Positions 3,211 to 55,295 of a stretch of DNA of 64,000 nucleotides are shown one piece after another; the stretch's first letter is position 1; each line of letters begins with the position of its first letter. The stretch lies in NCBI RefSeq assembly GCF_058153355.1, contig NZ_CM177019.1. The stretch is one strand, 5' to 3'. A program made the position numbers and the translations under genes. The notes beneath the pieces are model-generated. The model ran no database searches and was not told where the DNA came from. It saw only the letters and a program-made list of their open reading frames with translations.

Positions 3211-4451
3211 TGAAAATAAAACAGGCCCTTTTCACCGCTGGCTACTCTTCATTCTATTTCGATGACCAGCAGGCGATAAAAAACGGAGCGGGTCACGACG
3301 GCTTTTTTTATACCGGAGAGCCGGTAACACAGGGGTTTAACGCCGTACGTCAGGCCGGGGAGTGCGTTTCGGTTCAGTTGATTCTGGAAAACGGTGCGGT
3401 CGCCGTAGGCGACTGTGCTGCCGTACAGTATTCCGGGGCAGGCGGTCGCGATCCACTGTTCCTCGCAGAGCACTTTATTCCGTTCCTCAACGACCATATC
3501 AAGCCATTACTGGTAGGCCGCGATGTGGATGCTTTCCTGCCGAATGCCCGTTTCTTCGACAAATTGCGTATTGACGGAAACTTGCTGCATACCGCCGTAC
3601 GTTACGGATTATCACAGGCGCTGCTTGATGCTACCGCGCTGGCAACCGGCCGTCTAAAAACTGAAGTGGTCTGTGATGAATGGCAGTTGCCACGCGTGGC
3701 GGAATCCATTCCATTATTTGGTCAGAGCGGCGACGATCGATATATCGCTGTCGATAAGATGATCCTTAAGGGCATCGACGTGCTACCTCATGCGCTGATT
3801 AATAACGTCGAAGAGAAACTGGGCTTTAAAGGAGAAAAACTGCGCGAATATGTCCGTTGGCTATCCGATCGGATTCTAAGCAAACGCACCAGCGCACGCT
3901 ACCACCCTACCCTGCACATCGATGTATACGGCACTATTGGTCTGATCTTCGATATGGATCCGCTTCGCTGTGCGCAATACATCGCCAGTCTGGAAAAAGA
4001 GGCGCAAGGCCTGCCGCTCTACATTGAGGGGCCGGTCGATGCCGGTAACAAGCCCGATCAAATTCGCCTGCTGACCGCGATTACCAAAGAGCTGACGCGC
4101 CTCGGTTCCGGCGTGAAAATTGTGGCCGATGAATGGTGTAACACCTACCAGGATATTGTTGATTTCACTGATGCCGCCAGTTGCCACATGGTGCAAATCA
4201 AAACCCCGGATCTGGGCAGTATTCACAACATCGTCGATGCAGTTCTTTATTGCAACAGCCACAGCATGGAAGCGTACCAGGGCGGCACCTGCAATGAAAC
4301 CGATGTCAGCGCCCGCACGTGTGTCCACGTCGCCCTTGCCGCTCGCCCTATGCGTATGCTGGTAAAACCGGGGATGGGCTTTGACGAAGGCCTCGATATC
4401 GTCTTCAACGAAATGAATCGTACTATCGCGCTGTTGCAGGCTAAGGATTAA
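3210..4451 (+). CDS. mal: 3-Methylaspartate ammonia-lyase (beta-methylaspartase)
   Basis: 413-aa ORF, same length as clostridial methylaspartase, enolase-superfamily-like. Start overlaps the glmE stop. Confidence 0.8.
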   Translation: MKIKQALFTAGYSSFYFDDQQAIKNGAGHDGFFYTGEPVTQGFNAVRQAGECVSVQLILENGAVAVGDCAAVQYSGAGGRDPLFLAEHFIPFLNDHIKPLLVGRDVDAFLPNARFFDKLRIDGNLLHTAVRYGLSQALLDATALATGRLKTEVVCDEWQLPRVAESIPLFGQSGDDRYIAVDKMILKGIDVLPHALINNVEEKLGFKGEKLREYVRWLSDRILSKRTSARYHPTLHIDVYGTIGLIFDMDPLRCAQYIASLEKEAQGLPLYIEGPVDAGNKPDQIRLLTAITKELTRLGSGVKIVADEWCNTYQDIVDFTDAASCHMVQIKTPDLGSIHNIVDAVLYCNSHSMEAYQGGTCNETDVSARTCVHVALAARPMRMLVKPGMGFDEGLDIVFNEMNRTIALLQAKD

Positions 4452-4454
4452 CAA

Positions 4455-5825
4455 ATGGCTCGTTCTTTTAAAGTCTTATCGCCAACGGCAATCCTCGGGT
4501 ATGGATTCCCGGAAGAGAGCTTCCGCAAAGCGATGGCAGAATCGCCCGATCTGATCGCCGTTGATGCAGGCTCTTCCGATCCTGGCCCCCACTACCTCGG
4601 GGCGGGCAAACCGTTTACCGATCGCGCAGGGGTCAAACGCGATCTACGCTATATGATCACCGCAGGCGTGCAAAATAATATACCGGTGGTGATCGGAACG
4701 GCCGGCGGTTCTGGTGCAGCTCCACACCTGGAGTGGTGCCGAGAAATAATTCATGAGATTGCCCGGGAAGAGCACCTCGCGTTCTCGATGGCGCTGATCC
4801 CGGCAGACGTTGACAAAGCCATCGTCCACCAGGCGCTGGATAACGGCAAAATCACGGCGCTGGATTTTGTCCCGCCGTTAACCCACGACGCGATTGACGA
4901 AAGTACGTATATCGTCGCGCAAATGGGCGTCGAACCCTTCCAGCAGGCGCTGAAAGAAGGCGCGCAAGTGGTGCTGGGCGGGCGCGCTTACGACCCGGCC
5001 TGCTTTGCTGCGCTACCGATCATGCAAGGCTTTGATGAAGGTCTGGCGCTGCATTGTGGGAAAATCCTTGAATGCGCGGCAATCGCCGCAACGCCCGGCT
5101 CAGGCTCTGACTGTGCGATGGGCATCATTGATGACAACGGCTTTACGCTGAAGACATTTAATCCGAAGCGTAAATTTACCGAAACGTCAGCGGCTGCACA
5201 CACACTGTATGAGAAATCCGATCCCTACTTCCTGCCAGGACCTGGCGGCGTGTTGAACCTGAAAGGTTGCACATTTAAAGCGATCAATGATGGCGAAGTT
5301 TACGTCAGCGGTTCTAAGCATGAAGAAACGCCCTATGCCCTGAAACTGGAAGGTGCGCGGCGGGTGGGTTTCCGCTGTTTGACCATCGCCGGAACGCGCG
5401 ACCCGATCATGATCGCCGGGATCGATAACATCATCGATGAAGTCAAAACCAGCGTTTCGCGTAATCTGTCCTTAGACGATGACAGCATTCGCATCAATTT
5501 CCACCTGTACGGCAAAAACGGGGTGATGGGTAACCATGAACCGATGCAAACTGCCGGGCATGAGCTGGGGATTGTCCTTGATGTAGTTGCACCGACCCAG
5601 GAAATTGCCAACAGCGTTTGCTCGCTGGTGCGCTCTACCATGCTGCACTACGGCTATGAAAACCGCATCGCTACCGCAGGCAACCTGGCGTTCCCGTTCT
5701 CCCCTTCTGATATCCAGGGCGGGCCGGTATACGAATTTTCCATATATCACCTGATTGAAGCCAACGACGCTCTGCGTTTTGATTTCCATATTGAACAGGT
5801 GACGCCAGAAGGAGTTCAGGCATGA
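4455..5825 (+). CDS. DUF1446 (AtuA-like) family protein, function unknown
   Basis: 456-aa ORF tightly packed in the operon; family assignment from recollection of AtuA-like sequence features. Confidence 0.6.
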   Translation: MARSFKVLSPTAILGYGFPEESFRKAMAESPDLIAVDAGSSDPGPHYLGAGKPFTDRAGVKRDLRYMITAGVQNNIPVVIGTAGGSGAAPHLEWCREIIHEIAREEHLAFSMALIPADVDKAIVHQALDNGKITALDFVPPLTHDAIDESTYIVAQMGVEPFQQALKEGAQVVLGGRAYDPACFAALPIMQGFDEGLALHCGKILECAAIAATPGSGSDCAMGIIDDNGFTLKTFNPKRKFTETSAAAHTLYEKSDPYFLPGPGGVLNLKGCTFKAINDGEVYVSGSKHEETPYALKLEGARRVGFRCLTIAGTRDPIMIAGIDNIIDEVKTSVSRNLSLDDDSIRINFHLYGKNGVMGNHEPMQTAGHELGIVLDVVAPTQEIANSVCSLVRSTMLHYGYENRIATAGNLAFPFSPSDIQGGPVYEFSIYHLIEANDALRFDFHIEQVTPEGVQA

Positions 5826-6139
5826 AACAGTCAATTGTCTCACTGGCGCAAGTCATTCGTTCGAAAAATGCCGGACCTTACGAACTGGTTTTAGATATTT
5901 TATTTAAAACGAAAGAAAACTATGAGCGAGTAAAATCATCAGGGCAATTAACCCCAGAACTGATTGCGCGCTTATATCATGTTGAACCTGACTTTATTCA
6001 TCGTATTGTCTGGTTTGATCCTTCTAACGCAGTAAAAATTGTCATGCCACGAGATATTATCTCCGGGAATGTAGGTGACAATGATGTCTATGGCGCACAG
6101 CAACATGCACCTTTATTAAATATGAGTTTCGATTTGTAA
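5822..6139 (+). CDS. Small DUF4387-like protein (usual partner of DUF1446 proteins)
   Basis: 105-aa ORF overlapping the upstream stop by 4 nt, indicating translational coupling. Confidence 0.55.
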   Translation: MKQSIVSLAQVIRSKNAGPYELVLDILFKTKENYERVKSSGQLTPELIARLYHVEPDFIHRIVWFDPSNAVKIVMPRDIISGNVGDNDVYGAQQHAPLLNMSFDL

Positions 6140-6299
6140 AAATCCGAACACTTTTAGCCAACTGACATCCCGTCACTTATTGCAGCTCAACACTTCAGCT
6201 ATTTGTAAGGTTGTTATAGCAGGTAGATGCCTGAATCTCTATTCAGGCATCCACTTCTCCTGATTCTGATTTATCGCCGTGCACCTGATGGAGGAAAAA

Positions 6300-7580
6300 A
6301 TGAAGAAAATAAGTTTAACCACGATGATTCTTTTGGCGCTGGTACTTGGAATGATTATCGGCGTAGTGCTCAATAACACTGCTTCACCGGAAACAGCAAA
6401 ACTCTATGCGCAAGAAATATCGATATTCACGACGATTTTCTTACGACTGATAAAAATGATTATCGCTCCGTTAGTGGTCTCTACCCTGGTGGTAGGTATT
6501 GCTAAAATGGGCGATGCCAAAGCCCTTGGTCGTATTTTTTCTAAAACACTCTTTTTATTTATTTGCGCCTCATTGCTGTCAATTGCCTTAGGCTTGATAA
6601 CGGTAAATTTCTTCATGCCAGGCACAGGAATTAATTTTGTTGCACACGGTGCCGAAACCACCGGAGTGGTCGCGTCAGAACCCTTTACACTAAAAGTATT
6701 TATTTCGCATGCTTTCCCCACCAGCATTGTCGATGCCATGGCGCACAATGAAATTTTGCAAATCGTGGTGTTCTCAATTTTCCTCGGCTGTAGCCTGACG
6801 GCGATTGGTGAGAAAGGCAGCGCCATCGTTCACGCCTTAGATTCGCTGGCACATGCCATGTTAAAGCTCACTGGCTACGTCATGCTCTTCGCTCCCCTGA
6901 CCGTATTCGCCGCTATTTCAGCATTGATTGCTGAACGAGGACTGGCAGTTATGGTGAGCGCCGGGATCTTTATGGGTGAATTTTATTTCACCATGTTATT
7001 ACTTTGGGTGCTGCTTATCGGTCTGGCCATCGTTTATGTCGGCCCCTGCATCAGACGCCTGACCCGCGCCCTTTCAGAACCCGCCCTGCTGGCATTTACC
7101 ACATCCAGTTCTGAAGCTGCTTTTCCGGGAACGCTTGAAAAACTGGAGCAATTTGGCGTTTCCCCCAAAATTGCCAGCTTTGTCTTACCCATTGGCTACT
7201 CATTTAATCTCGTTGGATCAATGGCCTACTGCTCCTTCGCCACAGTTTTCATCGCCCAGGCCTGCAATATCCATTTATCCATCGGTGAGCAAATCACCAT
7301 GCTGTTGATCCTGATGTTGACCTCGAAAGGAATGGCTGGCGTACCACGCGCCTCAATGGTGGTTATCGCCGCCACGCTCAACCAGTTCAATATTCCGGAA
7401 GCGGGGCTGATCTTGCTGATGGGCGTTGATCCGTTCCTTGATATGGGGCGTTCCGCGACAAACGTCATGAGCAACGCAATGGGCGCTGCGATGGTGAGTC
7501 GGTGGGAAGGCGAACATTTCGGCGAGGGTTGTCGGGGTAAAGCATTAAAACCCAATGAATCGAACGTTGCTCTGCCCTGA
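6300..7580 (+). CDS. Dicarboxylate/amino acid:cation symporter (DAACS family), likely glutamate/aspartate uptake
   Basis: Multi-pass membrane protein with GltP/GltT-like sequence. Start chosen at the ATG (6300) preceded by a GGAGGA ribosome-binding site. Confidence 0.8.
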   Translation: MKKISLTTMILLALVLGMIIGVVLNNTASPETAKLYAQEISIFTTIFLRLIKMIIAPLVVSTLVVGIAKMGDAKALGRIFSKTLFLFICASLLSIALGLITVNFFMPGTGINFVAHGAETTGVVASEPFTLKVFISHAFPTSIVDAMAHNEILQIVVFSIFLGCSLTAIGEKGSAIVHALDSLAHAMLKLTGYVMLFAPLTVFAAISALIAERGLAVMVSAGIFMGEFYFTMLLLWVLLIGLAIVYVGPCIRRLTRALSEPALLAFTTSSSEAAFPGTLEKLEQFGVSPKIASFVLPIGYSFNLVGSMAYCSFATVFIAQACNIHLSIGEQITMLLILMLTSKGMAGVPRASMVVIAATLNQFNIPEAGLILLMGVDPFLDMGRSATNVMSNAMGAAMVSRWEGEHFGEGCRGKALKPNESNVALP

Positions 7581-7687
7581 GGGAGATCTTAAGCAATCAG
7601 AAGCCAATGACTACGCATTTTTATAAGCCGGATCATGAAGTTAGACGGCAATTAAGTAACACTAACGTTTAAGGTGAAAAGTGAAAT

Positions 7688-9340
7688 ATGTCCAAACCAT
7701 TTATCTGGCAAGAACCGTTTCTACAAAATAAAGACGGTACAGAATATACATTAATTAGCGATCAACATATTACAGTAACGGAATTAGACGGCGAAGAAGT
7801 AATAAAAATCGCTCCTGAAGCATTAACGCTGCTTGCCCGGCAGGCATTTTATGAAGCCTCTTTTTTCTTACGTTCCGCTCATTTGCAACAGGTCGCCAGC
7901 ATTCTTAACGATCCGCAGGCCAGCAGTAATGATAAATACGTTGCGTTGCAGTTATTACGTAATGCTGAAGTCTCAGCAAAAGGGGTATTACCCAACTGTC
8001 AGGATACCGGCACCGCAACTATTGTTGCCAGTAAAGGGCAACAGATATGGACCGGAGGCAACGACGCCGAAGCCTTAAGCAAAGGCATTTACACCACTTT
8101 TCAGGAAAATAATTTGCGCTTTTCACAAAATGCGCCGCTGGATATGTATACCGAAGTCAATACGTACACCAATCTACCGGCGCAGATTGATATCAGCGCC
8201 GTCGCTGGTGATGAGTACCATTTTCTCTGTATTAATAAAGGGGGCGGCTCCGCCAATAAAGCCGCACTTTATCAGGAAACCAAATCCTTATTGCAACCAG
8301 AAAAACTGACCGCATTTTTAATCGAAAAAATGAAATCGCTGGGCACCGCTGCCTGCCCGCCTTACCACATCGCCTTTGTCGTCGGAGGGCTTTCAGCCGA
8401 TCAAACCTTAAAAGTTGCCAAGCTGGCCTCTACGAAATATTACGACAATTTGCCCACCAGCGGAAACGAGCAGGGACAAGCATTCCGTGATATTGAGCTG
8501 GAAAAAGCGTTGCTCGAAGCCAGTCAGCAATTTGGTATTGGTGCGCAATTTGGGGGTAAATATTTCGCTCATGATATTCGCGTCATTCGTCTGCCGCGTC
8601 ACGGTGGCTCCTGCCCGATAGCTATGGCGCTCTCCTGTTCTGCCGATCGCAATATCAAAGCAAAAATTAACAAGCATGGTATCTGGCTGGAAAAACTCGA
8701 ACACAATCCGGGGCAATATATTCCAGCCTCACTGCGGGAAGAAAATCACGCGCAACATGTACAGCTGGATCTAAACCGTCCGTTGCGTGACGTGATGCAG
8801 GATCTCGCCAGATTACCGGTAGGCACCCGCGTGTCGTTAAGTGGTCCCATCGTAGTGGCGCGCGATATCGCCCACGCCAAAATAAAAGCGCGGCTGGATA
8901 GCGGCGAATCGATGCCGGATTATCTGAAGCATCATATTGTCTATTACGCTGGCCCGGCGAAAACACCGGAGAACATGGCCTGCGGTTCACTGGGTCCAAC
9001 CACGGGCGGTCGAATGGACGGTTATGTCGAAACCTTCCAGGCGGCTGGCGGCAGTCTGGTAATGTTATCGAAAGGTAACCGCAGCCAGCAGGTCACCGAT
9101 GCCTGTCACAAACATGGCGGCTTCAATCTGGGAAGTATTGGCGGTGCAGCTGCGTTACTGGCGCAAGAATATGTCAAAAGTCTGCGTTGCCTGGAATACC
9201 CGGAGCTGGGTATGGAAGCGGTGTGGATGATGGAAGTGGAAAATCTGCCCGCATTCATCCTGGTCGATGATAAAGGCAATAATTTCTTTAGTCAGTTTGA
9301 GCAGCAACACCGCTGCGCCAGTTGCCCTGCGGGACATTAA
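7688..9340 (+). CDS. fumD: Class I fumarate hydratase paralog, probable mesaconase (FumD-type)
   Basis: 550-aa ORF closely resembling FumA/FumB (CQDTGTA, GGGSANK, CPPYH, SCSADRN). Genomic context is the methylaspartate pathway. Confidence 0.85.
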
Positions 9341-9349
9341 GGAAAATGA

Positions 9350-9952
9350 ATGGAAGCGCGAATTTCAACTGAACGGCATGTGCAGCGCCAGCAGAAATTG
9401 AAGGAACAGGTCGATACGCGCGTCGCGGCGGCGATAGAGAAAAAAGGGATCTTGATTGTTTTCACCGGCAACGGCAAAGGGAAATCCACTGCCGCGTTTG
9501 GTACTGTGACGCGCGCGGTGGGTCATGGCAAAACGGTGGGGGTTGCGCAGTACATCAAGGGGCAATGGGACAACGGCGAATACAACCTTCTCCAGCCGCT
9601 GGGGGTTGAGTTTCATATTATGGGAACCGGTTTTACCTGGGAGACTCAGAACCGGCAAGCGGATATCGACGCGGCGAAAGAGGTCTGGTCGGAAAGCAAA
9701 CGGATGCTGGCTGACAAGCGTTACGACTTAGTGGTGCTTGATGAGCTGACCTATATGCTGGCTTACCATTATCTGGACACCGAAGAAGTGATCACTTCTC
9801 TGCAAAACCGCCCGGCACAACAAAGTGTCATTGTCACCGGACGCAGTTGCCACAGTCAGATATTAAAAATGGCGGATACGGTCAGCGAAATCCGCCCCGT
9901 CAAACATGCTTTTGATAACGGCATTCAGGCGCAGCCGGGTATCGACTGGTAA
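9350..9952 (+). CDS. Cob(I)alamin adenosyltransferase (BtuR/CobO family)
   Basis: 200-aa ORF with P-loop-like GNGKGKSTAA, characteristic of CobA/BtuR-type ATP:corrinoid adenosyltransferases. Confidence 0.8.
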   Translation: MEARISTERHVQRQQKLKEQVDTRVAAAIEKKGILIVFTGNGKGKSTAAFGTVTRAVGHGKTVGVAQYIKGQWDNGEYNLLQPLGVEFHIMGTGFTWETQNRQADIDAAKEVWSESKRMLADKRYDLVVLDELTYMLAYHYLDTEEVITSLQNRPAQQSVIVTGRSCHSQILKMADTVSEIRPVKHAFDNGIQAQPGIDW

Positions 9953-9955
9953 TAA

Positions 9956-9990
9956 CTGCGCCTGGCATCCCGCCAGGCGCAGGTTTTACA
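9956..9990. terminator. Bidirectional intrinsic terminator between the adenosyltransferase gene and the convergent LysR gene
   Basis: Perfect 10-bp inverted repeat ctgcgcctgg/ccaggcgcag with a 7-nt loop, followed by a T-run. Confidence 0.6.
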
Positions 9991-10891
9991 TCTCCTGCGG
10001 TACGACCGATTTCGCCAGCAACCATTCACGAAATTGCTGCAAGTGCGGCGAGTCAGACTTCTCTTCCTGCCACGTCATAATAAAACGATTACCGGTACGA
10101 ATAGGCACATCACAGGGAATCACCATATCGCCACTATCCAAATCATGTTGAATAGCGAACCGTGGTAACAGCGCCACGCCGAGATTAGAGCGCACGGCGG
10201 CAATCAGCATTGAAAGCAAATCGAAACGTGGTCCGTTATTGACCAGCGGACTGCTAACGCCAGATAAAGCAAACCACTCTTCCCAGCCAGTAATACGGGT
10301 GCTTTGATGCAGAAGTGGTAACTCAGTAAGCAGTTCTGCCACTGAAAGTTTTTGATCGGACATTGCAAGCAAACTGCCGCTGCATACCGGCAAAATCTCC
10401 TCTTCAAAGAGATATTCTACTTCCGCCCAGGGCGCGCAAAAATTTTCGCGCATAATGACAGCATCGTACTCCCGATTAAGAAAATCGCCGTTATTAGCTA
10501 AAGAATGAATATTAACAATAATATCGGGATGTAACTTTGTGAATTCATGTAAATTTGGGATTAACCAGTGGGTACTAAACGTAGGATTAACGGCAAGTTC
10601 AATAACCTGAACCGTAGGCTGCCAGGTCATAATCGTATTGGTATCGCGTTCCAGCTTATTTAATGTTTCTTTTACTATCCCCAGGTAATACTTCCCTGCA
10701 TCATTAAGAAAAATGCGTTTTTTAGAGTGTGAAAATAGCGGAGTATGTAAAAATTCCTCCAGCGCACTTACTTGTCTGAATACAGCACTTTGGGTTAACG
10801 CTAACTCCTCTGCCGCTCTGGTATAGCTTTCATGACGTGCGACGACCTCAAAAGTCACCAGCAGCTCCGTTTTAGGTATTTTTCCTCGCAT
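9986..10891 (-). CDS. LysR-family transcriptional regulator
   Basis: N-terminal helix-turn-helix typical of LysR regulators (TFEVVARHESYTRAAEELALTQSAVFRQV). Start could instead be the upstream ATG at 10921. Confidence 0.85.
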   Translation of the reverse strand: MRGKIPKTELLVTFEVVARHESYTRAAEELALTQSAVFRQVSALEEFLHTPLFSHSKKRIFLNDAGKYYLGIVKETLNKLERDTNTIMTWQPTVQVIELAVNPTFSTHWLIPNLHEFTKLHPDIIVNIHSLANNGDFLNREYDAVIMRENFCAPWAEVEYLFEEEILPVCSGSLLAMSDQKLSVAELLTELPLLHQSTRITGWEEWFALSGVSSPLVNNGPRFDLLSMLIAAVRSNLGVALLPRFAIQHDLDSGDMVIPCDVPIRTGNRFIMTWQEEKSDSPHLQQFREWLLAKSVVPQEM

Positions 10892-11480
10892 AATGCCGTC
10901 CGTGAAAAAATAACAATTCAAAAATTATTTTATAAAAAACAGTAGCACTAATGAATATCATAATTCAAATAAACAAACCAGTCAGCTATATGTCTAACCA
11001 GGAAAATAAAGTGACAATAATCCTAAAACAGGAATTTCACCTCAGTTATCCGCATGCAATACTTTAAAGCTATTATTGCAAGAATATTATTCATATACAT
11101 GAATATACTCTAAATAAGTCAAGTTGCAGGAAGGGAACAAATAATGAATTTCCAGAAGCTTACATAAGTAAGTGACCTGGGTGAGCGAACATCGATGCAG
11201 CACATGCAACTTGAATTATGACAAGTATACAATGATAAATTTATATACCCTATGTTATATATTATCTATGTCCGGTTAGATTGAATGAGTCATAGCCTTA
11301 AAAGACTTCACAAAAGATAATTCCTCTTTAACAATAAGCCAGATTTACCACTTGTAAAACTTGCTATCGCCACATACACTACGCGCGTTTTCTTTCCCTT
11401 TTGCTGGCTGCTGACCGGAAAGACAAAATTACCCTCGCAATACAGGGGGTTGATTAACGTCTATATTTCAGGACAGCGTT
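10892..11480. promoter_or_regulatory. AT-rich divergent intergenic region between the LysR gene and the RtcB-like gene
   Basis: About 590 bp of strongly AT-rich non-coding DNA between divergently oriented genes. Confidence 0.5.
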
Positions 11481-12878
11481 ATGCATCATCTTTCAAGGCT
11501 TGATAAAGCCTTTCTGCGCAAAGGGATCCAACTTTCCCGCGCCAACAATATTGTTTCATTATGTCGTCCATCAGGAGCCAGTGCCCGCGTACTGCTGCCG
11601 GACGAACTGCCGCTGGAAGAAAAAGCAGTAACACAACTGCTTGATTTTGCAGAAGTGAAGCTACCAGACCACCCAGGTTATGTGCGCCAGACGTGCGCGA
11701 CGCCAGATTTTCATCCCGGCAATGGCGTCCCCGTTGGCGCGGTGGTGGCCTCAACGCCGGATTTAGTCATTCCCGCCGCCATCGGCACCGATATTTCTTG
11801 TGGCATGCGGCTGCTGACGACCGGATTAACACTTGAGCAAGCCGAAGCGCATAAAGACGTCATCGCTCAGCGGTTAACGCAAGTGCTACTGCAAAATGAG
11901 CGCGATGTTCCGTTATCCGCACAGGCGTTCACCGCGCTTTTTGATGGCGGACCGGCAGATTGCGTGTCGACCTTGCCATCAGCAGGTCTCTGGACACGCA
12001 CGAATATCCCCCGAATGGTACAAGAGATTGACCGCTGCATTGGGCTTAACGAGCATAACAGTCATTCGCGTTATGCCCCACCCGCCCTGCTGGCAACGGA
12101 CCGCGCATTACTCCGCGATCCTTGTCTTGGTACGCCGGGTTCAGGTAATCATTTTATTGAACTTCAGGTCGTTGATAGCGTGGTTGATCGCCATGTAGCC
12201 TGGCAACAAGGGCTGAAAACAGGCGATATTGTGGTGATGATCCACAGTGGATCGCGAGATGTTGGCTTTTACGTCGGAAGACGCTGGATGGATCGCGCCC
12301 GTGCTGAATGGCCCACCGGACATAAACATCCACAAAGCGGGTTATATGGTCTGGCAGGCGGACTGGCGGAGGAATATCTACAAGCGATAGGAATGGCGGC
12401 GCGTTACGCGTGGTTAAATCGCGTGACAATTGCCGAAATGGTGCGCGTATGTCTTGCCAATCTCTTTCATCAGGACAATTCGCATCTGGTGGTGGATGTG
12501 CCACATAACATCATCCTTCGCGAGCATGAAATGAATATTCATCGCAAAGGCGCAACACCGGCACGAGTGGGCAATCTGGCGTTAATCCCCGGTTCAATGG
12601 GCGATTATTCGTGGCTTGCGGTAGGTTGCGGCAACCCGGAGTGGCTGTGGTCTTGCAGTCACGGAGCAGGACGCAGCCAGCGTCGGCAGGCCATGCGCTC
12701 ACGCGCGACTGAAGAGTCAACGTTGCCGTGGCAATGCGTCACATTGCGCGAAGAACGGCGTATTGAAGAAGCGCCAGCTGCTTATAAAGATATTGGTCCG
12801 GTTATCGAAGCCCAACAAGAGGCCGGATTAATTCATCCAGCGGTTAGATTCCGACCGTGGTTAACGTTTAAAGCATAA
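11481..12878 (+). CDS. RtcB-family RNA ligase-like protein (orphan paralog)
   Basis: 465-aa ORF with RtcB hallmark motifs (DISCGMR, GSGNHFIE, HSGSRDVG, CSHGAGR). No rtcA or rtcR gene adjacent. Confidence 0.75.
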   Translation: MHHLSRLDKAFLRKGIQLSRANNIVSLCRPSGASARVLLPDELPLEEKAVTQLLDFAEVKLPDHPGYVRQTCATPDFHPGNGVPVGAVVASTPDLVIPAAIGTDISCGMRLLTTGLTLEQAEAHKDVIAQRLTQVLLQNERDVPLSAQAFTALFDGGPADCVSTLPSAGLWTRTNIPRMVQEIDRCIGLNEHNSHSRYAPPALLATDRALLRDPCLGTPGSGNHFIELQVVDSVVDRHVAWQQGLKTGDIVVMIHSGSRDVGFYVGRRWMDRARAEWPTGHKHPQSGLYGLAGGLAEEYLQAIGMAARYAWLNRVTIAEMVRVCLANLFHQDNSHLVVDVPHNIILREHEMNIHRKGATPARVGNLALIPGSMGDYSWLAVGCGNPEWLWSCSHGAGRSQRRQAMRSRATEESTLPWQCVTLREERRIEEAPAAYKDIGPVIEAQQEAGLIHPAVRFRPWLTFKA

Positions 12879-12975
12879 AAAAGGCCATCATACGATGGCC
12901 AACCATGTCGAAACCGACAGCCCTTCGCCATTCCTGTAGAGGGAAGCGGCGAGGGCTATTTCTTATTACAGATAT
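12875..12975 (-). ncRNA. sdhX: sucD 3' UTR ending in an intrinsic terminator; expected position of the SdhX (RybD) sRNA
   Basis: Hairpin ggccatc-gtatg-gatggcc followed by a U-tract on the minus strand immediately after the sucD stop. The sRNA identity is from position only; its sequence was not verified. Confidence 0.5.
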
Positions 12976-13845
12976 TTATTTCAGAACAGTTTTCAGTGCT
13001 TCACCGATATCCGCCAGGCTGCGAACGGTTTTCACGCCTGCGGCTTCCAGAGCAGCAAATTTCTCATCCGCAGTCCCTTTCCCACCGGCAATGATGGCAC
13101 CCGCGTGGCCCATACGTTTGCCTTTCGGCGCAGTTACACCAGCGATGTAACCTACAACTGGCTTGGTAACGTGCTCTTTGATGTACGCAGCCGCTTCTTC
13201 TTCAGCGCTACCGCCGATCTCACCGATCATCACGATCGCTTCGGTCTGCGGATCTTTTTCGAACATTTCGAGGATGTCGATAAAGTTAGAGCCTGGGATC
13301 GGGTCGCCGCCGATACCGACACAGGTCGACTGACCGAAACCGTAATCCGTGGTCTGTTTAACCGCTTCATAGGTCAGTGTACCGGAACGGGAAACGATAC
13401 CCACTTTACCCGGTTTGTGAATGTGACCAGGCTGGATGCCGATTTTACATTCACCCGGAGTGATAACGCCTGGGCAGTTCGGGCCGATCATGCGTACGCC
13501 AGCTTCGTCCAGTTTCACTTTCACCGTCAGCATATCCAGCGTCGGGATGCCTTCAGTGATGGTGATAATCAGTTTGATACCTGCGTCGATGGCTTCCAGA
13601 ATGGAGTCTTTGCAGAACGGAGCCGGTACGTAGATAACAGAAGCGGTAGCGCCAGTGGCAGCAACGGCTTCACGCACAGTGTTGAACACCGGCAGACCGA
13701 GGTGGGTAGTACCGCCTTTACCAGGGGTTACGCCGCCAACCATTTTAGTGCCGTATGCAATGGCCTGTTCAGAGTGGAAAGTCCCCTGGCTACCAGTAAA
13801 GCCCTGGCAGATAACCTTGGTGTTTTTATCAATTAAAATGGACAT
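12976..13845 (-). CDS. sucD: Succinyl-CoA synthetase alpha subunit
   Basis: 289-aa ORF matching SucD. Confidence 0.97.
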
Positions 13846-23701: not shown

Positions 23702-24985
23702 ATGGCTGATACAAAAGCAAAACTCACCCTCAACGGGGATACAGCTGTTGAACTGGATGTGCTGAAAGGCACGCTGGGTCAAGACGTTATTGATATCCGT
23801 ACTCTCGGTTCAAAAGGTGTGTTCACCTTTGACCCAGGCTTCACTTCAACCGCATCCTGCGAATCTAAAATTACTTTTATTGATGGTGATGAAGGTATTT
23901 TGCTGCACCGCGGTTTCCCGATCGATCAGCTGGCGACCGATTCTAACTACCTGGAAGTTTGTTACATCCTGCTGAATGGTGAAAAACCAACTCAGGAACA
24001 GTATGACGAATTTAAAACGACGGTGACCCGTCATACCATGATCCACGAGCAGATTACCCGTCTGTTCCATGCTTTCCGTCGTGACTCGCACCCTATGGCA
24101 GTCATGTGTGGTATTACCGGCGCGCTGGCGGCGTTCTATCACGACTCGCTGGATGTTAACAATCCTCGTCATCGTGAAATTGCCGCGTTCCGCCTGCTGT
24201 CAAAAATGCCGACCATGGCCGCGATGTGTTACAAGTATTCCATTGGTCAGCCATTCGTTTACCCGCGCAACGATCTCTCCTATGCCGGTAACTTCCTGAA
24301 TATGATGTTCTCCACGCCGTGCGAACCGTATGAAGTCAACCCGATTCTGGAACGTGCTATGGACCGTATTCTGATCCTGCACGCTGACCATGAACAGAAC
24401 GCCTCTACCTCCACCGTGCGTACCGCTGGCTCTTCGGGGGCGAACCCGTTTGCCTGTATCGCAGCAGGTATTGCTTCACTGTGGGGACCTGCGCACGGTG
24501 GTGCTAACGAAGCAGCGCTGAAAATGCTGGAAGAAATCAGCTCCGTTAAACACATTCCGGAATTTGTTCGTCGTGCGAAAGACAAGAATGACTCTTTCCG
24601 CCTGATGGGCTTCGGTCACCGCGTGTACAAAAACTACGACCCGCGCGCCACCGTCATGCGTGAAACCTGCCACGAAGTCCTGAAAGAGCTGGGCACGAAG
24701 GATGACCTGCTGGAAGTAGCTATGGAGCTGGAAAATATCGCGCTGAACGATCCGTACTTTATTGAGAAAAAACTGTACCCTAACGTCGATTTCTACTCTG
24801 GTATCATCCTGAAAGCGATGGGTATTCCGTCTTCCATGTTCACCGTCATATTCGCTATGGCACGTACAGTTGGCTGGATCGCCCACTGGAGCGAAATGCA
24901 CAGTGACGGCATGAAGATTGCCCGTCCACGTCAGCTGTATACCGGCTATGAAAAACGCGATTTTAAAAGCGACATCAAACGTTAA
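23702..24985 (+). CDS. gltA: Citrate synthase
   Basis: 427-aa ORF starting [36 protein letters not shown]. Confidence 0.98.
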
Positions 24986-25014
24986 CTGCTGATTCCTAAG
25001 CAGTAAATTCTGTT

Positions 25015-25045
25015 AACCCGCCTTTAAAAGGCGGGTTAATTTTTA
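25015..25045 (+). terminator. gltA intrinsic terminator
   Basis: Hairpin aacccgcc-tttaaaa-ggcgggtt followed by a T-run. Confidence 0.75.
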
Positions 25046-25376
25046 TCTACCTGAACACAAAAAAATGTAAAAATAAAATTAATTAACCGGCTGACATTAA
25101 TATTGCAAAATAATAGAATTGTTCATTTTATCGGCAAAATAATAAGTTTTAATTAAGGTATCTGCTTTTAGTTACATTTATAACCTCATGAAAATGAGGT
25201 ATATCTCTCTCATTCCCCCGATAACATTCATTAAATTATTAATTCATCACATCAATTAGTTAACCTTGCATTTAATATAATTAATAATATTTTTAAGTAA
25301 AACTAAAAACATTCGACAATCAAATAAGATATTCTGATATCGCTATACTTTTTCTATTTCTGTAAAGGACTCAGTT

Positions 25377-25943
25377 ATGTTTAAAGGACAAAAAACATTG
25401 GCCGCATTGGCCGTATCTCTGTTATTCACTGCACCGGTTTATGCAGCTGATGAAGGTTCTGGTGAAATTCACTTTAAAGGTGAGGTTATAGAAGCACCAT
25501 GTGAAATACATCATGATGATATTGATAAAGAAATTGAGCTAGGTCAGGTGACCACCAGCCACATTAATCAGTCTCATCACAGCGATGCGGTTGCTGTCGA
25601 CCTGCGTTTAATCAACTGCGACCTGGAAAACTCTAATAACGGTTCCGGTGGCAAGATTTCTAAAGTCGCGGTCACCTTCGATAGCTCAGCGAAAACCACT
25701 GGCGCAGATCCGATACTCAACAATACCAGCACTGGCGAAGCCACCGGTGTCGGCGTGCGTTTAATGAATAAGGATCAAAGCAATATCATTTTAGGCACTG
25801 CTTCTCCGGATATCGACCTCGCACCAACGTCCAGTGAACAAACACTGAACTTCTTTGCCTGGATGGAACAAATTGATCAAGCGACACCAGTAACGGCAGG
25901 GGCTGTTACAGCGAATGCAACCTACGTACTGGATTATAAATAA
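25377..25943 (+). CDS. ybgD: Fimbrial subunit (chaperone-usher pilus)
   Basis: 188-aa ORF with signal peptide and fimbrin-like sequence. Confidence 0.9.
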   Translation: MFKGQKTLAALAVSLLFTAPVYAADEGSGEIHFKGEVIEAPCEIHHDDIDKEIELGQVTTSHINQSHHSDAVAVDLRLINCDLENSNNGSGGKISKVAVTFDSSAKTTGADPILNNTSTGEATGVGVRLMNKDQSNIILGTASPDIDLAPTSSEQTLNFFAWMEQIDQATPVTAGAVTANATYVLDYK

Positions 25944-39153: not shown

Positions 39154-39977
39154 TTACGAAAGCACGCTCCCCGCAAGGACTGACGCCAGGTAGTTTCTGT
39201 CCATGGCTGCCCTTTCCATTCACACGTGAAATCAATAAGTTCATCAGGGACATCGCAAACAATGTGAAGACGGATTTCTTCTCTGCCGTGACTCTTTTCA
39301 CTAATTGCGTAACTGTCATGCTCTGGATTATTTAATTCTTTCAGTGAGAATTTTTCCTCAAAGGCTTTATTTAGCCGCCCCTGGTTTCCTTTTACAGCGA
39401 ATAAATAATCACCTCCCTGTTTTTGTATCTTCTCTGCAATATCTTTCTGGCAACCCATCGCATCAGTTGTGATGATTTTTCCTTTAATATCCAGCATGTT
39501 AAGAAGTTCAGGGATAGCTGTAATTTCATTTGATTTCTCATCCGTCCTGATCTGTCCGATGACCAGACTGTGCATTGTTGAGAACGCACTAATGACATGA
39601 ATCGCTCCCCTGCAGCGACTCTTGTCATAAGAATGCCGGAGCTTTTTTCCATCAATTGCAATGACGTCTTTATCATCTGAAGAATGGCAGTCACGCATCC
39701 AGTTAATAAAGCACTCGTGAAATTTTGCAGGACTGATACAGGATACAACTCTGGCAATGGTATCGTGAACAGGAATACCATTTTCAAAATCACCCTATTG
39801 CTTCAAAAAATCGAGATGTGTTTCCCCAAAATCCTCTATATCTTCTCAACCTTCTGCACCCGAAATAACGGCGCAAATAGTCAACAGTAGAATATCCGAT
39901 AATTTATGTTCCACTTTCCAGGCTTGTCTGTAATCGGGGATAATAGAAATATGTTCCATCAATTTTTTAAGTACCAT
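39154..39977 (-). pseudogene. H-repeat-associated (ISAs1-family) transposase pseudogene
   Basis: N-terminus [43 protein letters not shown] hits an in-frame TGA. Downstream frames carry [20 protein letters not shown]...[18 protein letters not shown] and the terminal [16 protein letters not shown], requiring a frameshift and an internal deletion after ...EWKG. Confidence 0.85.
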
Positions 39978-40370
39978 TTTGTTCTCCTTAATTATGTAAG
40001 GAGTATTTGATCATGTATAAGCAATAAAAAACAGCTTCAGGTAATGAGGAATATCTCAATTTTTAAACATAAAATGCGAATTGTTTAGTACAAAAAAGCA
40101 GCGTTACGTGATCTTTTCCTGCCATGGGTCTTTACCACAGCAGCTGGGGTTGTTTGGGACCGACTTCCGACAGCAGATCCCGGTGAGCCTGCCACCATCT
40201 CTTCACAAGCTTATGCTTATTACATGCAAAACGTCCCGTTTTGCATCTTTGTGCCTACGGCACACGATGATCTTTCCCTGAGGAGTCATACTTTGTTAGG
40301 ATAAAAAACCTTTAAATAGCTTTCCTACCTTCCAATAAAAACCACAGAATCAGCAATGTTTAAATTTCAA

Positions 40371-41192
40371 TCAGTATTGAGTTTCATTTGTGATCTCTAC
40401 ATTCACTCCTGATGGCTTCTCGCTAAATAAATATCTCATACTCTCATTCTCCATAATCACGGATATATTTAACCCTCCATGAATCCATTGATATGTAATA
40501 TTTTTATCATCAATCTTATAACTAAAATTCCCAATTGGTAACTTTTCCTTCAGATAATTATTCTCCTCATAACTAAGTGCTAGTAATTTATCATAGGCAC
40601 CTTTTAAATCAAAACCCTCAAAATAGCAATGTTCTTTTGATGAACCATCAAATTCTTTTCTGGGATTAGCATCATGACACCAAGTCGACCATTTTTCTTT
40701 TTTTTCCTCAGAAGTATGTTTTTTTTCATTGAAAAACAGCACATAATATTTCTCTGGGATTATTATCTGATCATTAATTTTTAAGATATCTCTATATGGC
40801 CCAGGACATTTATGAACAGAATCCATAATGGATATTTCTTCAGGAAAAAGTTTGCCTTCATGTTTAAATAATTTCCTGTACATACCAACTGTTGTTTGTG
40901 ATAAGTAATATGACAAGGGCTTTTTTTTAACTTCAACATAGTCAGTCGAGCATACGAGACTATTTTCCAATGAATAATCATTTATCGTTAGCTTTCGCCC
41001 ATCCATATTTATCACTACCTTACTGTATGTTTCATCAAGGGCACTTATTATAAGCGAATCATGTTTACCAAAAACATCGATATCTGAAACATTATGATAA
41101 ATCCATACGGTATTTTTAGTATTATCATTAGAATATGCGATACCATGAATAAAAAAAATCATTAGAAAGCCCATAAAAAATTTACCGCGCAT
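40371..41192 (-). CDS. Putative periplasmic immunity protein for the adjacent T6SS cell-wall-lytic effector
   Basis: 273-aa ORF with Sec-type signal peptide (MRGKFFMGFLMIFFIHGIAYS), Lys/Asn-rich, AT-rich codon usage, 19 bp downstream of the effector gene. No recognisable homology, so function is inferred from position. Confidence 0.6.
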   Translation of the reverse strand: MRGKFFMGFLMIFFIHGIAYSNDNTKNTVWIYHNVSDIDVFGKHDSLIISALDETYSKVVINMDGRKLTINDYSLENSLVCSTDYVEVKKKPLSYYLSQTTVGMYRKLFKHEGKLFPEEISIMDSVHKCPGPYRDILKINDQIIIPEKYYVLFFNEKKHTSEEKKEKWSTWCHDANPRKEFDGSSKEHCYFEGFDLKGAYDKLLALSYEENNYLKEKLPIGNFSYKIDDKNITYQWIHGGLNISVIMENESMRYLFSEKPSGVNVEITNETQY

Positions 41193-41211
41193 ACAAATTC
41201 CTTAATGTAAA

Positions 41212-43977
41212 TCAATGTGATGAATCATAAACATTATTCAAAAATAGATTTTGTTCTTTTCGGCGTCGTATAACAAGGCCAGCAACTCCGCCATTTGTAA
41301 TATCAAGAAATTCATTGGAGGCACCTATATAATCCTTTTGATTAAGTTTAGAATTCAAATTCGGTGCCTTACTCATGCTCCCCATATTAAACAATAAACT
41401 TATTAACGCATCAAATTCGTACTGATATAAATCCACACTCACTGTTCTTTTAAGCTCACTAACAAAACCAGATAAACGCTCTTCAAATAACTCATCAGCT
41501 TTAGCAATTGTTATTCCATGCTGAAATTCTTCTGGTAAAACTATATCATTGCAACGTTGTGTAGCAATTAAATGTCCATAACCTATAGTACAGTAACCTT
41601 CTGAATCATTATATGCTGTTAGTTGTAAATATTCCCATTCTTTTATAAAACCCTTACCTTTATTTGATACATTCAAATCTGCAATGGCGATCCTTTCAGC
41701 AGTTTGTTCTTCGTTAAAACTATTGATGTACCCCTCCATCAATATATCAATTGGATCATGTAAATCATCCCGTCTATAAAATGGAGGTATTTGTGTATTA
41801 TTCGGCGGAGGCGCTCCATTGTTTCCTGGATAGTATTCAAAATGCAACATATAAACCACTTCTTCCCCAGGGATTATAACTGGAGGCCTCCCTGTATCAG
41901 GTTTAATCATCAACCCTGTTTTGGCAATTATTGCCCCTTGCATAATATGATCATTAATCTTTACTAAAATACTTGATGGATCAACTTCACCATACCGCAC
42001 ATAGAAATGCCGACCATCTCTAGTCGAGTGCTCAATCGTAACTTGCCAAGTACCGTAATAGTATCGAGAAATAGCTCTTACTATTCCGTTGCAAACCGAA
42101 ACAATATCAGACTTCGGTTCCGTATATAGATCACGCGCTCCATGTTTTCTATTACCATTATTACGATTTCGTCCAAATATAGCTTGAGAGGCATTTCGAT
42201 CTGTCAAGGCAGCAGCCCAAAAATAATTTTTCCACTTTCCATTTTTGTCATTATTAGGTTTTACTTTTAAAGGAAAAATAATTTGATTTGATTTTTTCTG
42301 AGATAATGAATCTAAAAACACAACCGGATGAAAATGCCACACAGCATCATCACTATTAAACGGAGATACCCCGCTCATCCACTCCAGATCCAGCTGCCAC
42401 TTCTCACAGTATGCCACTTCCTCTGTATCCAGATCTTTATAAAATCCTTCCCACCGCCCTGTCGAGCGCCCTCCGTACCATTCGCTGTGGTGTTTAACTA
42501 TCAGATGATTCACCACATTTCTCACCAGTGGTTCACGCACGATCAGCGCCTGTCTGATCTCTTCCTCCGTCACTTTTCCATCACCGTCCTGATCCATACC
42601 CGCCATCAGCTCACGATAAAAGGGCGGTACCTGCTCATACAGCCACTCATCTCCCTGTTCTGCGGCACGGCTTATTGAGTCAAACGCTTCCGGCACCCAT
42701 CCTTCGTACGGGCTGTACGTCATGTCACCGCTGCTGTTCTCCTCCAGCGGTTGAAAACCCAGCTTCAGTAAATCATACTGTCCGGCCTCTTCAACATCCT
42801 TTTGTGGCAGCCAGCCGGTTCCGGTGATATTAAACCACCACTGCTGCGATTCATCCGTGACTGGTGTCGTGGCTTCCCGCGGAAGAACGCGCTGAGCACC
42901 CAGCGTGGCTGCGGTTGCGGTAAATACCTCCTGTCCCGGAACGGCCTGCCGGGTGTATAAAATTATCCCTTTTGGTGCCAGAACAGTCCGTTTTTCTCCC
43001 TTAACGCCTGCCGGGTTGGATAAGAACTTTGGCATATTCGGGTCTGTACTCAGAACCTCCAGATGGACGAACCACTCGCGCTCAATCTCACCGCTTCCCT
43101 CGCCAGGATAATCCTCGCATCCCATAAATCCGACCGGTGTTCCGGCACTGACTTTCCACTCTTCCGTTTCGTCGACCGTCTGTACCGAGTCAAAAATGCC
43201 TTTTGCCTTCGCCTTCTGCATCCACTCAGGCATCAGCATCTGTATTTCGCCATCTGACTCCATCAGATCCGGATCCAGGGTCACCCAGTACTGCTCATTC
43301 CCCGGTTTATTGCCTTCCAGCAGGCGAACCAGTCCGAATGTCGTCAGGACCGGCTGGCCGTTATTGGTCACGTAAAAACGTCCGGTCCGGGATGACACAA
43401 ACCGATCTCCCGCATTAAGTGTCCTGTTTCCGCTGATTTTCGGGGGTATCCAGTACGTGGCATGATCTCCGCTTTCCTGCCCCTCGGGAAGGCCGTTCTT
43501 TCCCGGGATGTATCGGTGCAGCAATATGCCACCATGCCCGGTTTTAACTTTATAGCAGGGGGAGCCGGGATAATCGTTCACCGGGGCCAGATGCATATAG
43601 AGACAGTAAAATTCCAGCCAGCTTTCTTTTTTTTGCGGGTCTGGCTGGCACTGCGATTTCACCAGAACAAATGTGCTGCTGTAACGGAGTTGCTGCCCTT
43701 TGTAGGGGCCTTTCAGGTAATCATTATTTATCCGGTACGCCGCAATGGTGCCATCGGCCATAAACTGAAGAGGAACCGGTTCTCCGGTAGCGGCGGTATC
43801 CGGTTTCAGGGCTGATAACGGATTAGACACGTCACTGATATGTATCCCGCCGTGCCACAGCCCGTTTCCACCCAGCAGCCAGGTTCCGTGCGCTTCTTTG
43901 TCAATAAGCCGCATTATCTCATCCAGTGAGCGAAACTCTTTGCCTTCTTTATCCCTGATGGGATGGCTGATTTTCAT
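41212..43977 (-). CDS. VgrG-linked T6SS effector with C-terminal T4-lysozyme-like (GH24) muramidase domain and internal M23-peptidase-like domain
   Basis: 921 aa. Residues ~770-915 align motif-for-motif with T4 lysozyme (KEWEYLQLTAYNDSEGYCTIGYGHL vs ...[24 protein letters not shown]; Glu/Asp/Thr triad positions present). Residues ~605-716 carry HGARD...MLHFEYY, resembling M23 HxxxD...HxH. EF-hand-like loop DQDGDGKVTEEE at residues 462-473. Start lies 9 nt after the vgrG stop with an AGGA ribosome-binding site. Confidence 0.75.
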   Translation of the reverse strand: MKISHPIRDKEGKEFRSLDEIMRLIDKEAHGTWLLGGNGLWHGGIHISDVSNPLSALKPDTAATGEPVPLQFMADGTIAAYRINNDYLKGPYKGQQLRYSSTFVLVKSQCQPDPQKKESWLEFYCLYMHLAPVNDYPGSPCYKVKTGHGGILLHRYIPGKNGLPEGQESGDHATYWIPPKISGNRTLNAGDRFVSSRTGRFYVTNNGQPVLTTFGLVRLLEGNKPGNEQYWVTLDPDLMESDGEIQMLMPEWMQKAKAKGIFDSVQTVDETEEWKVSAGTPVGFMGCEDYPGEGSGEIEREWFVHLEVLSTDPNMPKFLSNPAGVKGEKRTVLAPKGIILYTRQAVPGQEVFTATAATLGAQRVLPREATTPVTDESQQWWFNITGTGWLPQKDVEEAGQYDLLKLGFQPLEENSSGDMTYSPYEGWVPEAFDSISRAAEQGDEWLYEQVPPFYRELMAGMDQDGDGKVTEEEIRQALIVREPLVRNVVNHLIVKHHSEWYGGRSTGRWEGFYKDLDTEEVAYCEKWQLDLEWMSGVSPFNSDDAVWHFHPVVFLDSLSQKKSNQIIFPLKVKPNNDKNGKWKNYFWAAALTDRNASQAIFGRNRNNGNRKHGARDLYTEPKSDIVSVCNGIVRAISRYYYGTWQVTIEHSTRDGRHFYVRYGEVDPSSILVKINDHIMQGAIIAKTGLMIKPDTGRPPVIIPGEEVVYMLHFEYYPGNNGAPPPNNTQIPPFYRRDDLHDPIDILMEGYINSFNEEQTAERIAIADLNVSNKGKGFIKEWEYLQLTAYNDSEGYCTIGYGHLIATQRCNDIVLPEEFQHGITIAKADELFEERLSGFVSELKRTVSVDLYQYEFDALISLLFNMGSMSKAPNLNSKLNQKDYIGASNEFLDITNGGVAGLVIRRRKEQNLFLNNVYDSSH

Positions 43978-54026: not shown

Positions 54027-54700
54027 CAAACGTTCTGATTGTTGAAGATGAACAGGCTATTCGTCGCTTTCTGCGCACAGCGCTGGAGGGCGATGGGATG
54101 CGCGTCTTTGAGGCCGAAACGCTGCAACGCGGCTTGCTGGAAGCGGCAACCCGTAAGCCAGATTTGATTATTCTCGATCTCGGCCTGCCAGACGGTGATG
54201 GGATTGAGTTTATCCGCGACCTGCGCCAGTGGAGCGCGGTGCCAGTAATTGTGCTTTCCGCCCGCAGCGAAGAGAGCGACAAAATCGCCGCGCTGGATGC
54301 CGGAGCGGATGATTACCTGAGTAAGCCATTTGGTATTGGCGAATTACAGGCCCGTCTGCGCGTTGCTTTACGCCGCCACTCTGCTACCACCGCGCCCGAT
54401 CCGCTGGTGAAATTTTCTGATGTTACCGTCGATTTAGCCGCCCGCGTAATCCACCGCGGCGAGGAAGAGGTGCACCTCACACCGCTTGAGTTCCGCCTGC
54501 TGGCGGTGCTGCTCAACAACGCCGGAAAAGTGCTCACCCAGCGCCAGCTCCTCAACCAGGTGTGGGGGCCAAATGCGGTCGAACACAGCCACTATTTGCG
54601 TATATATATGGGGCATCTGCGACAAAAACTGGAGCAAGATCCCGCCCGCCCTCGCCATTTTATTACTGAAACCGGTATTGGGTATCGGTTTATGCTTTGA
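54023..54700 (+). CDS. kdpE: Response regulator KdpE (OmpR family)
   Basis: 225-aa ORF starting [17 protein letters not shown], with receiver and winged-helix domains. Confidence 0.97.
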   Translation: MTNVLIVEDEQAIRRFLRTALEGDGMRVFEAETLQRGLLEAATRKPDLIILDLGLPDGDGIEFIRDLRQWSAVPVIVLSARSEESDKIAALDAGADDYLSKPFGIGELQARLRVALRRHSATTAPDPLVKFSDVTVDLAARVIHRGEEEVHLTPLEFRLLAVLLNNAGKVLTQRQLLNQVWGPNAVEHSHYLRIYMGHLRQKLEQDPARPRHFITETGIGYRFML

Positions 54701-54736
54701 ATGTTAATTTTAATATATCCTGTCTTTTATTAATTA

Positions 54737-54766
54737 AAGCCGTAATAATAAATACGGCTTTTTATC
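54737..54766 (+). terminator. kdpE intrinsic terminator
   Basis: Hairpin aagccgta-ataataaa-tacggctt followed by a T-run. Confidence 0.7.
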
Positions 54767-54933
54767 TTAAACAACACACAAAAATAACAATTCAATATTT
54801 TATATTACTGAGTGAAAAACTCATCATTAAATAAATTAAGGTTGATCATTTTTTATTGATCACCTTCACAGTTCAACCGTATTTTCTGGATAGAATACCT
54901 TCACCTTCATTCACATCAGGAAAGGTAAATCAA

Positions 54934-55038
54934 ATGGAAAACAACAGCCGCACTATGCCCCATATAAGGCGGACAACCCATATTATGAAGTTTGCTCATC
55001 GTAATAGCTTCGACTTTCACTTCTTCAATGCCCGTTAG
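54934..55038 (+). CDS. speFL: speF leader / ornithine-sensing ribosome arrest peptide SpeFL
   Basis: 34-codon ORF MENNSRTMPHIRRTTHIMKFAHRNSFDFHFFNAR about 250 bp upstream of speF, preceded by an AGGAAAGG ribosome-binding site. Confidence 0.85.
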   Translation: MENNSRTMPHIRRTTHIMKFAHRNSFDFHFFNAR

Positions 55039-55295
55039 TCTGTCGACTAAGGGCACTTCAGCGTACAGGTCTTCCTGACTCTCTGTATTACAGGCATACG
55101 CCTGTATTCCGCAGTGCTCATTCTCTGTTAACCCTTATATTATCAGCCACCGGACTGGTAAGGGTTTCTGCATTCTGAAAAAAGCAATCTACTGATTTAT
55201 TTATCAGCGGGGTAACTTTGCTTTTTTTCCGGCACGATCGATTTCTCATTCGAGAAATTGAGGACCTGCTATTACCTAAACTAAAGAGATGAAAA

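Follow-up and report, generated by a model that had tools for sequence, protein, structure and literature searches.

The LysR-RtcB locus

The DNA analysed here, hereafter the window, is a stretch of 64,000 nucleotides from an Escherichia coli chromosome (contig NZ_CM177019.1). Positions 10892-11480 of the window correspond exactly to the gap between two start codons, the ATG of a LysR-family regulator gene on the minus strand and the ATG of an RtcB-family RNA ligase gene on the plus strand. This block is 99.7% identical to its counterpart in strain 2013C-4282 (L001). The genes and the segments of the block are as follows.

9986..10891, minus strand: LysR-family (GcvA-like) regulator gene, matching Pfam HTH_1 and LysR_substrate and annotated by RefSeq in 2013C-4282
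10892..10909, minus strand: LysR-proximal 18 bp, present in every allele; presumed site of LysR translation initiation
10910..11102: left orphan segment, 193 bp, allele-specific
11104..11229: ERIC/IRU (RU-1) repeat copy, ~126-128 bp, with boundaries placed to within about 5 bp
11231..11372: right orphan segment, 142 bp, allele-specific
11373..11480, plus strand: RtcB-proximal segment, 108 bp, common to the hut allele and to cryptic-clade Escherichia; presumed RtcB leader/promoter
11481..12878, plus strand: RtcB-family RNA ligase gene, 465 aa, Pfam RtcB at 8.6e-95

The best NCBIfam match of the LysR gene is the GcvA subfamily, at a score under the cut-off of that family. The RtcB-family protein reaches neither of the two NCBIfam equivalog cut-offs, that of canonical RtcB or that of PrfH-linked RtcB, and it is an orphan paralogue that belongs neither to the canonical E. 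coli RtcB nor to the PrfH-linked type. Its best solved relatives are the RtcB proteins of Thermus and Pyrococcus, and its nearest relatives outside Escherichia are found in Betaproteobacteria and Gilliamella. These share 57-63% identity with it, a distance at which the gene looks foreign. No conserved partner genes were found around RtcB homologues in other bacteria, and RtcR was nearby only in Gilliamella.

Upstream of the block lies a methylaspartate/glutamate-mutase cluster containing glmS, glmL, glmE, and genes for methylaspartate ammonia-lyase, an AtuA-like protein, a DUF4387 protein, a symporter and a class I fumarase, together with cobO. Downstream of RtcB are sucDCBA and then sdh. The island is missing from most E. 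coli, K-12 included. The RtcB stop codon is 97 bp from the convergent sucD stop codon, and homology with K-12 resumes at 12871 (stretch 12871-12975). Since K-12 homology resumes there and RtcB abuts sucD, mngR-mngA-mngB are deleted in the window strain. The sucD 3′ UTR, which the window RtcB adjoins, encodes the SdhX sRNA in K-12 (PMC6393394). The stretch 12871-12975 gave no Rfam match. The literature search returned nothing specific on this island, the hut allele described below or the RtcB paralogue, and the RtcB papers checked are silent on the paralogue.

Base composition of the block

The sequence-only reading had described the block as strongly AT-rich relative to the flanking coding DNA, and the GC check bears this out. 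The GC content of the block is 0.340, compared with 0.509 for the whole window, 0.52 for ORF-based coding DNA and 0.411 for pooled intergenic-like gaps. A sliding-window analysis along the whole window found a GC content as low as that of the block in only 2.3% of stretches of 589 bp. The block is AT-rich even by an intergenic standard. It is not the most extreme gap of the window, as the gap at 24986-25376 has a GC content of 0.27. Other AT-rich stretches are located at 24700-25400, 39500-42000 and 54600-55300, where GC falls to 0.27-0.32, and the stretch at 39.5-42 kb is both longer and lower in GC than the LysR-RtcB block.

GC content is uneven along the block, with values of 0.264 in the left orphan segment (10910-11102), 0.375 in the repeat, 0.303 in the right orphan segment (11231-11372) and 0.463 in the last 108 bp. 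Low GC (0.37-0.42) also runs past the LysR start codon for ~450-500 bp within the 5′ half of that gene, a half with a GC content of 0.40, and the composition boundary is therefore sharp only at the RtcB side.

Three layers revealed by strain comparison

Comparison among strains resolves the block into three layers: the 18 bp next to LysR, found in all alleles; a central, allele-specific stretch of 463 bp (the filler); and the 108 bp next to RtcB, found also in the hut allele. In word-7 BLAST comparisons with other alleles, the homology breaks are sharp, falling at 10909/10910 and 11372/11373. The homology of the hut allele (L002) and of the O157 allele (L003) passes through LysR and ends at window 10909, and the cryptic-clade sequence (L009) also shares the LysR-side 18 bp. 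Within the RtcB-proximal 108 bp there are a small inverted repeat (11388-11397 and 11417-11426) and an AGGA Shine-Dalgarno sequence.

By megablast, the full block is present in 144 of 5426 complete E. coli genomes, while 151 more match only the last 108 bp. The central 463 bp are confined to the same 144 genomes plus six truncated copies. The two orphan segments together (193 + 142, or 335 bp) matched nothing elsewhere in E. coli genomes, nor in plasmids or phages. A search of metagenome contigs for an exact 22-mer from the filler returned one unrelated chance match, and none of the searches made detected the filler in anything other than E. coli. We also considered whether the orphan DNA is homologous to the AT-rich spacers of the hut, O157 or cryptic-clade loci; this was rejected, with local alignment scores in the range of shuffled sequences (z ≤ 2.4).

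The window was compared with three other window-type sequences, and the divergence in these comparisons is 3.1% in the left orphan segment, 2-7% in the repeat, 4.9% in the right orphan segment, 1.9% in the 108-bp leader and 1.4-1.7% in LysR. The leader is thus the slowest-evolving part of the block (1.9% vs 3-7%). As far as these alignments indicate, the AT-rich part bears no sign of sequence constraint and appears to change at least about as fast as the flanking genes.

An ERIC repeat in the filler

In a distant-mode search with the 463 bp, window 11095-11229 proved to be ~84% identical to a 136-bp repeat, of which 5425 of the 5426 E. coli genomes have 2-11 copies each (median 6). The block repeat aligns to the copies between ybhJ and ybhI in K-12 and Sakai, with the similarity to K-12 spanning ~11099-11230. 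The element begins with TATACT and ends with AGTATA, giving TA at both termini. Its inverted arms of 25 nt are 80% complementary, located at 11104-11128 and 11205-11229, and their outer ends are 126 bp apart. A long hairpin is predicted on either strand (MFE -34.4 and -35.6 kcal/mol, z -3.97 and -3.87), and none of 200 shuffled sequences was as stable. The ERIC2 and ERIC1R primer sequences used for comparison reportedly come from Versalovic and colleagues in 1991. A site for ERIC2 matches at 20 of 22 positions (11166-11187), with 0 such matches expected by chance. The ERIC1R site is degenerate: it has no match at three or fewer mismatches, and by eye it can be placed with four mismatches on the opposite strand at 11143-11164.

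The ERIC family is a MITE-like enterobacterial repeat of ~127 bp (PMC3184786). Like members of this family, the block repeat is intergenic and 126-128 bp long, with TA-ended terminal inverted repeats, a hairpin and a core containing the ERIC2 site. On these sequence features we identify it as a copy of ERIC/IRU (RU-1). Besides the degenerate ERIC1R site, its location is atypical. Unlike a typical ERIC, the block copy lies in strain-specific island DNA, off the conserved core-genome positions. In addition, the ERICs with described effects on mRNA stability are in 3′ or intercistronic positions, whereas the block copy is upstream of two divergent genes. The repeat accounts for roughly one fifth of the length of the block and was absent from the sequence-only reading. 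Copies of this repeat were never annotated in the genomes matched, and the block copy is likewise without RefSeq annotation. An ERIC-free version of the filler, corresponding to an empty site, was not found in E. coli genomes or metagenome contigs.

Alternative contents of the LysR-RtcB gap

In about 145 complete E. coli genomes, the space between LysR and RtcB is taken up by an 8.65-kb hut operon, precisely at the position of the filler (for example, ST648, L002, and N32, L005; also L008). The operon contains a hutH-type ammonia-lyase gene, hutG, hutI, hutD, a permease gene and hutU, and is flanked by its own AT-rich spacers, with hutH in tandem with LysR. In the ST648 genome, the hut region spans 3347-12000 of the sequence compared, corresponding to the space from window 10909 to 11373, and hutU is frameshifted. 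The hut genes are absent from K-12.

A decayed form of the locus is found in 836 genomes, O157:H7 included. In O157:H7 EC4115 (L003, 4543-5208) it keeps LysR, the LysR-hutH spacer, a remnant of the hutH 3′ end and two fragments from the 3′ part of RtcB, with sucD directly after them. The O157 form is a deletion derivative of the hut form. In Escherichia sp. MOD1-EC7003 (L009, cryptic clade), LysR is ~80% identical to the window gene, and LysR is connected to RtcB by 914 bp made of two hut-type spacers without hut.

Window-type loci are themselves rearranged. In MSB1_4I (L004, 5132-7263) the block is intact, but RtcB has lost an internal part (window 11761-12552), and two further genes, one hypothetical and one encoding tetratricopeptide repeats, have been inserted ahead of sucD. 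In six genomes (L016, L017) an 8.8-kb deletion joins glmE (window 2250) to window 11094, removing everything from the 3′ part of glmE through LysR. This deletion ends 9-10 bp left of the ERIC repeat, which may be a coincidence or may mark a local break-prone site. LysR is truncated in A34 (L020), and in the more divergent window-type alleles (L018-L020) RtcB is followed by mngB, not sucD. Judged from these structures, the neighbourhood is a decaying and repeatedly rearranged island in which the LysR-RtcB gap is one exchange point. At least six structural forms of the sucD/mngB-proximal methylaspartate island occur in E. coli, and hut is exchanged at the LysR-RtcB gap.

Promoters, small genes and silencing

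The block had been proposed as a possible control region for LysR and RtcB. One part of this proposal stands, as the two genes are divergent and their promoters must be within the gap. Only 18 bp and 108 bp are common to the alleles, so that any control region in the AT-rich part can only be allele-specific, not conserved. With just 18 bp of upstream DNA common to the alleles, the LysR promoter of the window allele must be in the filler. The best sigma-70-like candidate is CTGACT-17-TATGAT on the minus strand (10985..10957), in the left orphan segment. A weak promoter-like site on the plus strand, TTCACA-17-AACAAT (11307..11335), lies in the right orphan segment. The number of promoter-like sites in the block is not above that in shuffled sequences (5 vs 2.9 ± 1.7 expected), and the result of the terminator scan was similar. 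No sigma-54 promoter, as in RtcR-type control, was found in the block. The conserved 108-bp leader is probably the likeliest seat of RtcB control.

AT-rich accessory DNA is the target of H-NS in xenogeneic silencing. Binding of H-NS to the block is plausible as a prediction from its 66-74% AT and its accessory status. Like silenced xenogeneic DNA, the block is accessory, lies in a promoter region and has an AT content 15-25 points above the genome average, a likeness that is compositional only. H-NS nucleation sites differ from the block in that it has neither a good match to the high-affinity motif nor an excess of A-tracts: the motif (TCGATAAATT-like) has only two matches, each with two mismatches, at 11232-11247, and the block contains 12 A/T tracts, compared with 9.7 ± 2.8 expected from composition.

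In a stronger version of the control-region proposal, the whole 590 bp would be bound by H-NS and dedicated to bidirectional control, with LysR acting there on its own gene and on the divergent RtcB. We regard this as rather doubtful. Its appeal comes from the geometry, in which a LysR-family gene faces its neighbour across common intergenic DNA as in the divergent regions of LysR-type regulators and their targets, and from the high AT content and the promoter-like hexamers on both strands. Typical divergent regions of LysR-type regulators are far shorter than 589 bp. The block also departs from such regions in that the partner gene depends on the allele (the hut operon in tandem in one form, nothing in O157) and the DNA upstream of LysR changes with it; what is kept is 18 bp by LysR rather than a conserved shared operator. 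RtcB keeps just its 108 bp, which at a GC content of 0.463 is not AT-rich, and the AT-rich part diverges at a rate roughly equal to that of the flanking genes, or higher. The block yielded no LysR box, and the H-NS motif and A-tract counts are uninformative on this point.

The block might instead hide an unannotated small gene, either a type I toxin with its antisense RNA or another sRNA. Such genes are common in AT-rich intergenic regions of E. coli, and the block contains a hydrophobic 29-aa ORF (minus strand, 10872-10961), a 38-aa ORF (plus strand, 10951-11067) and a terminator-like hairpin on the minus strand (11001..10978). Neither ORF is preceded by a Shine-Dalgarno sequence, and peptides rich in Phe, Ile and Leu arise by chance alone in T-rich DNA. 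In other strains the 29-aa ORF is frameshifted by single-base indels at 10904 and 10919; small ORFs of at least 20 aa were accordingly rejected as genes. A search of window 9500-13000 on both strands against Rfam 15 gave no match at E ≤ 1, and, ERIC aside, no E. coli genome contains a paralogue of the block DNA at another place. A hidden small gene is thus extremely unlikely. Also very unlikely, though less so, is that the 335 orphan bases and the ERIC repeat form a functional allele-specific promoter or silencer that rewires LysR, and perhaps RtcB, in the lineages that have lost hut, or that the ERIC repeat acts as a rearrangement hot spot.

Origin of the block

The AT-rich block is real but ordinary, namely a non-coding, allele-specific spacer that contains an ERIC repeat and coincides with an indel junction in an accessory island. 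The explanation that we consider best, with a probability of about 0.75, is a composite non-coding spacer between the divergent LysR and RtcB genes of the methylaspartate (glutamate mutase) island. The two genes retain conserved upstream DNA of their own only at the ends of the block, 18 bp for LysR and 108 bp for RtcB. The 463-bp filler between them consists of two AT-rich orphan stretches around one ERIC repeat, placed where other genomes carry the 8.65-kb hut operon. In the most likely history, an older hut form would have turned into the window form by a replacement or deletion that left the filler behind. The filler would then supply the LysR promoter of the window allele and, being 69-74% AT outside the ERIC repeat, would probably attract H-NS-type silencing. 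A transcript that included the ERIC repeat would have a long hairpin in its 5′ leader. RtcB would probably be driven from, or regulated through, its 108-bp leader. Neither a gene nor an sRNA nor any particular conserved regulatory element is indicated in the AT-rich part.

The direction of the exchange could also be the reverse, with the window-type filler as the ancestral LysR-RtcB spacer, later replaced by the hut cassette and its AT-rich flanks. This polarity would fit the most divergent window-type alleles (L018, L019 and L020), whose RtcB-mngB arrangement, with the core mngAB kept, looks older than RtcB-sucD. A simple insertion of hut would have split the filler around it, and is excluded because no filler flanks hut in the hut alleles. 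The diverged cryptic-clade lineage has hut-type spacers and no filler, and no filler was found outside E. coli. Because both this diverged Escherichia lineage (L009) and the common O157 form derive from the hut arrangement, hut is favoured as the older state, and the reversed polarity seems unlikely, if with a real chance of being right. A further suggestion of the sequence-only reading was that the block is the junction of two separately acquired modules, that is, a seam between the glutamate/methylaspartate island and an independently acquired RtcB module. The junction itself is evident in the two sharp homology breaks, and independent acquisition would agree with the distant outside relatives of RtcB and with its homologues elsewhere standing alone in unrelated contexts. 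The breaks, however, bound the hut/filler replacement and not an island/RtcB boundary, and RtcB is beside island genes in every configuration examined, including all 295 E. coli genomes that have the RtcB leader (144 window-type, 6 glmE-truncated and ~145 hut). Strain comparison yielded no genome with RtcB and without the island. The O157 form, which is without RtcB, retains RtcB 3′ remnants, and RtcB was therefore lost from this form rather than never present. A seam between two modules is for these reasons improbable, more so than the reversed polarity, and we retain the composite spacer left by hut replacement as the preferred explanation.

The locus resembles known plasticity spots of E. 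coli, such as folA-apaH (PMC3184786), in having alternative contents at one site, a small repeat and multiple independent deletions nearby. It differs from them in that the flanking genes, LysR and RtcB, are themselves accessory. Neither a mobile-element gene nor a target-site duplication that would explain the hut/filler exchange was found.

What is new here is one more copy of a known repeat, ERIC, and the description of a locus polymorphism. Beyond annotation, to which it adds an unannotated ERIC copy, its importance is small. The description may be useful for studies of the methylaspartate island, of the orphan RtcB paralogue and of ERIC-PCR band differences between lineages. It also calls for caution, in that alleles should be compared before AT-rich island spacers are read as conserved regulatory regions.

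The window RtcB gene differs by 2.1% from that of 2013C-4282, and the adjacent block and LysR gene differ by only 0-0.8%. This difference in divergence suggests a recombination boundary near the start of RtcB.
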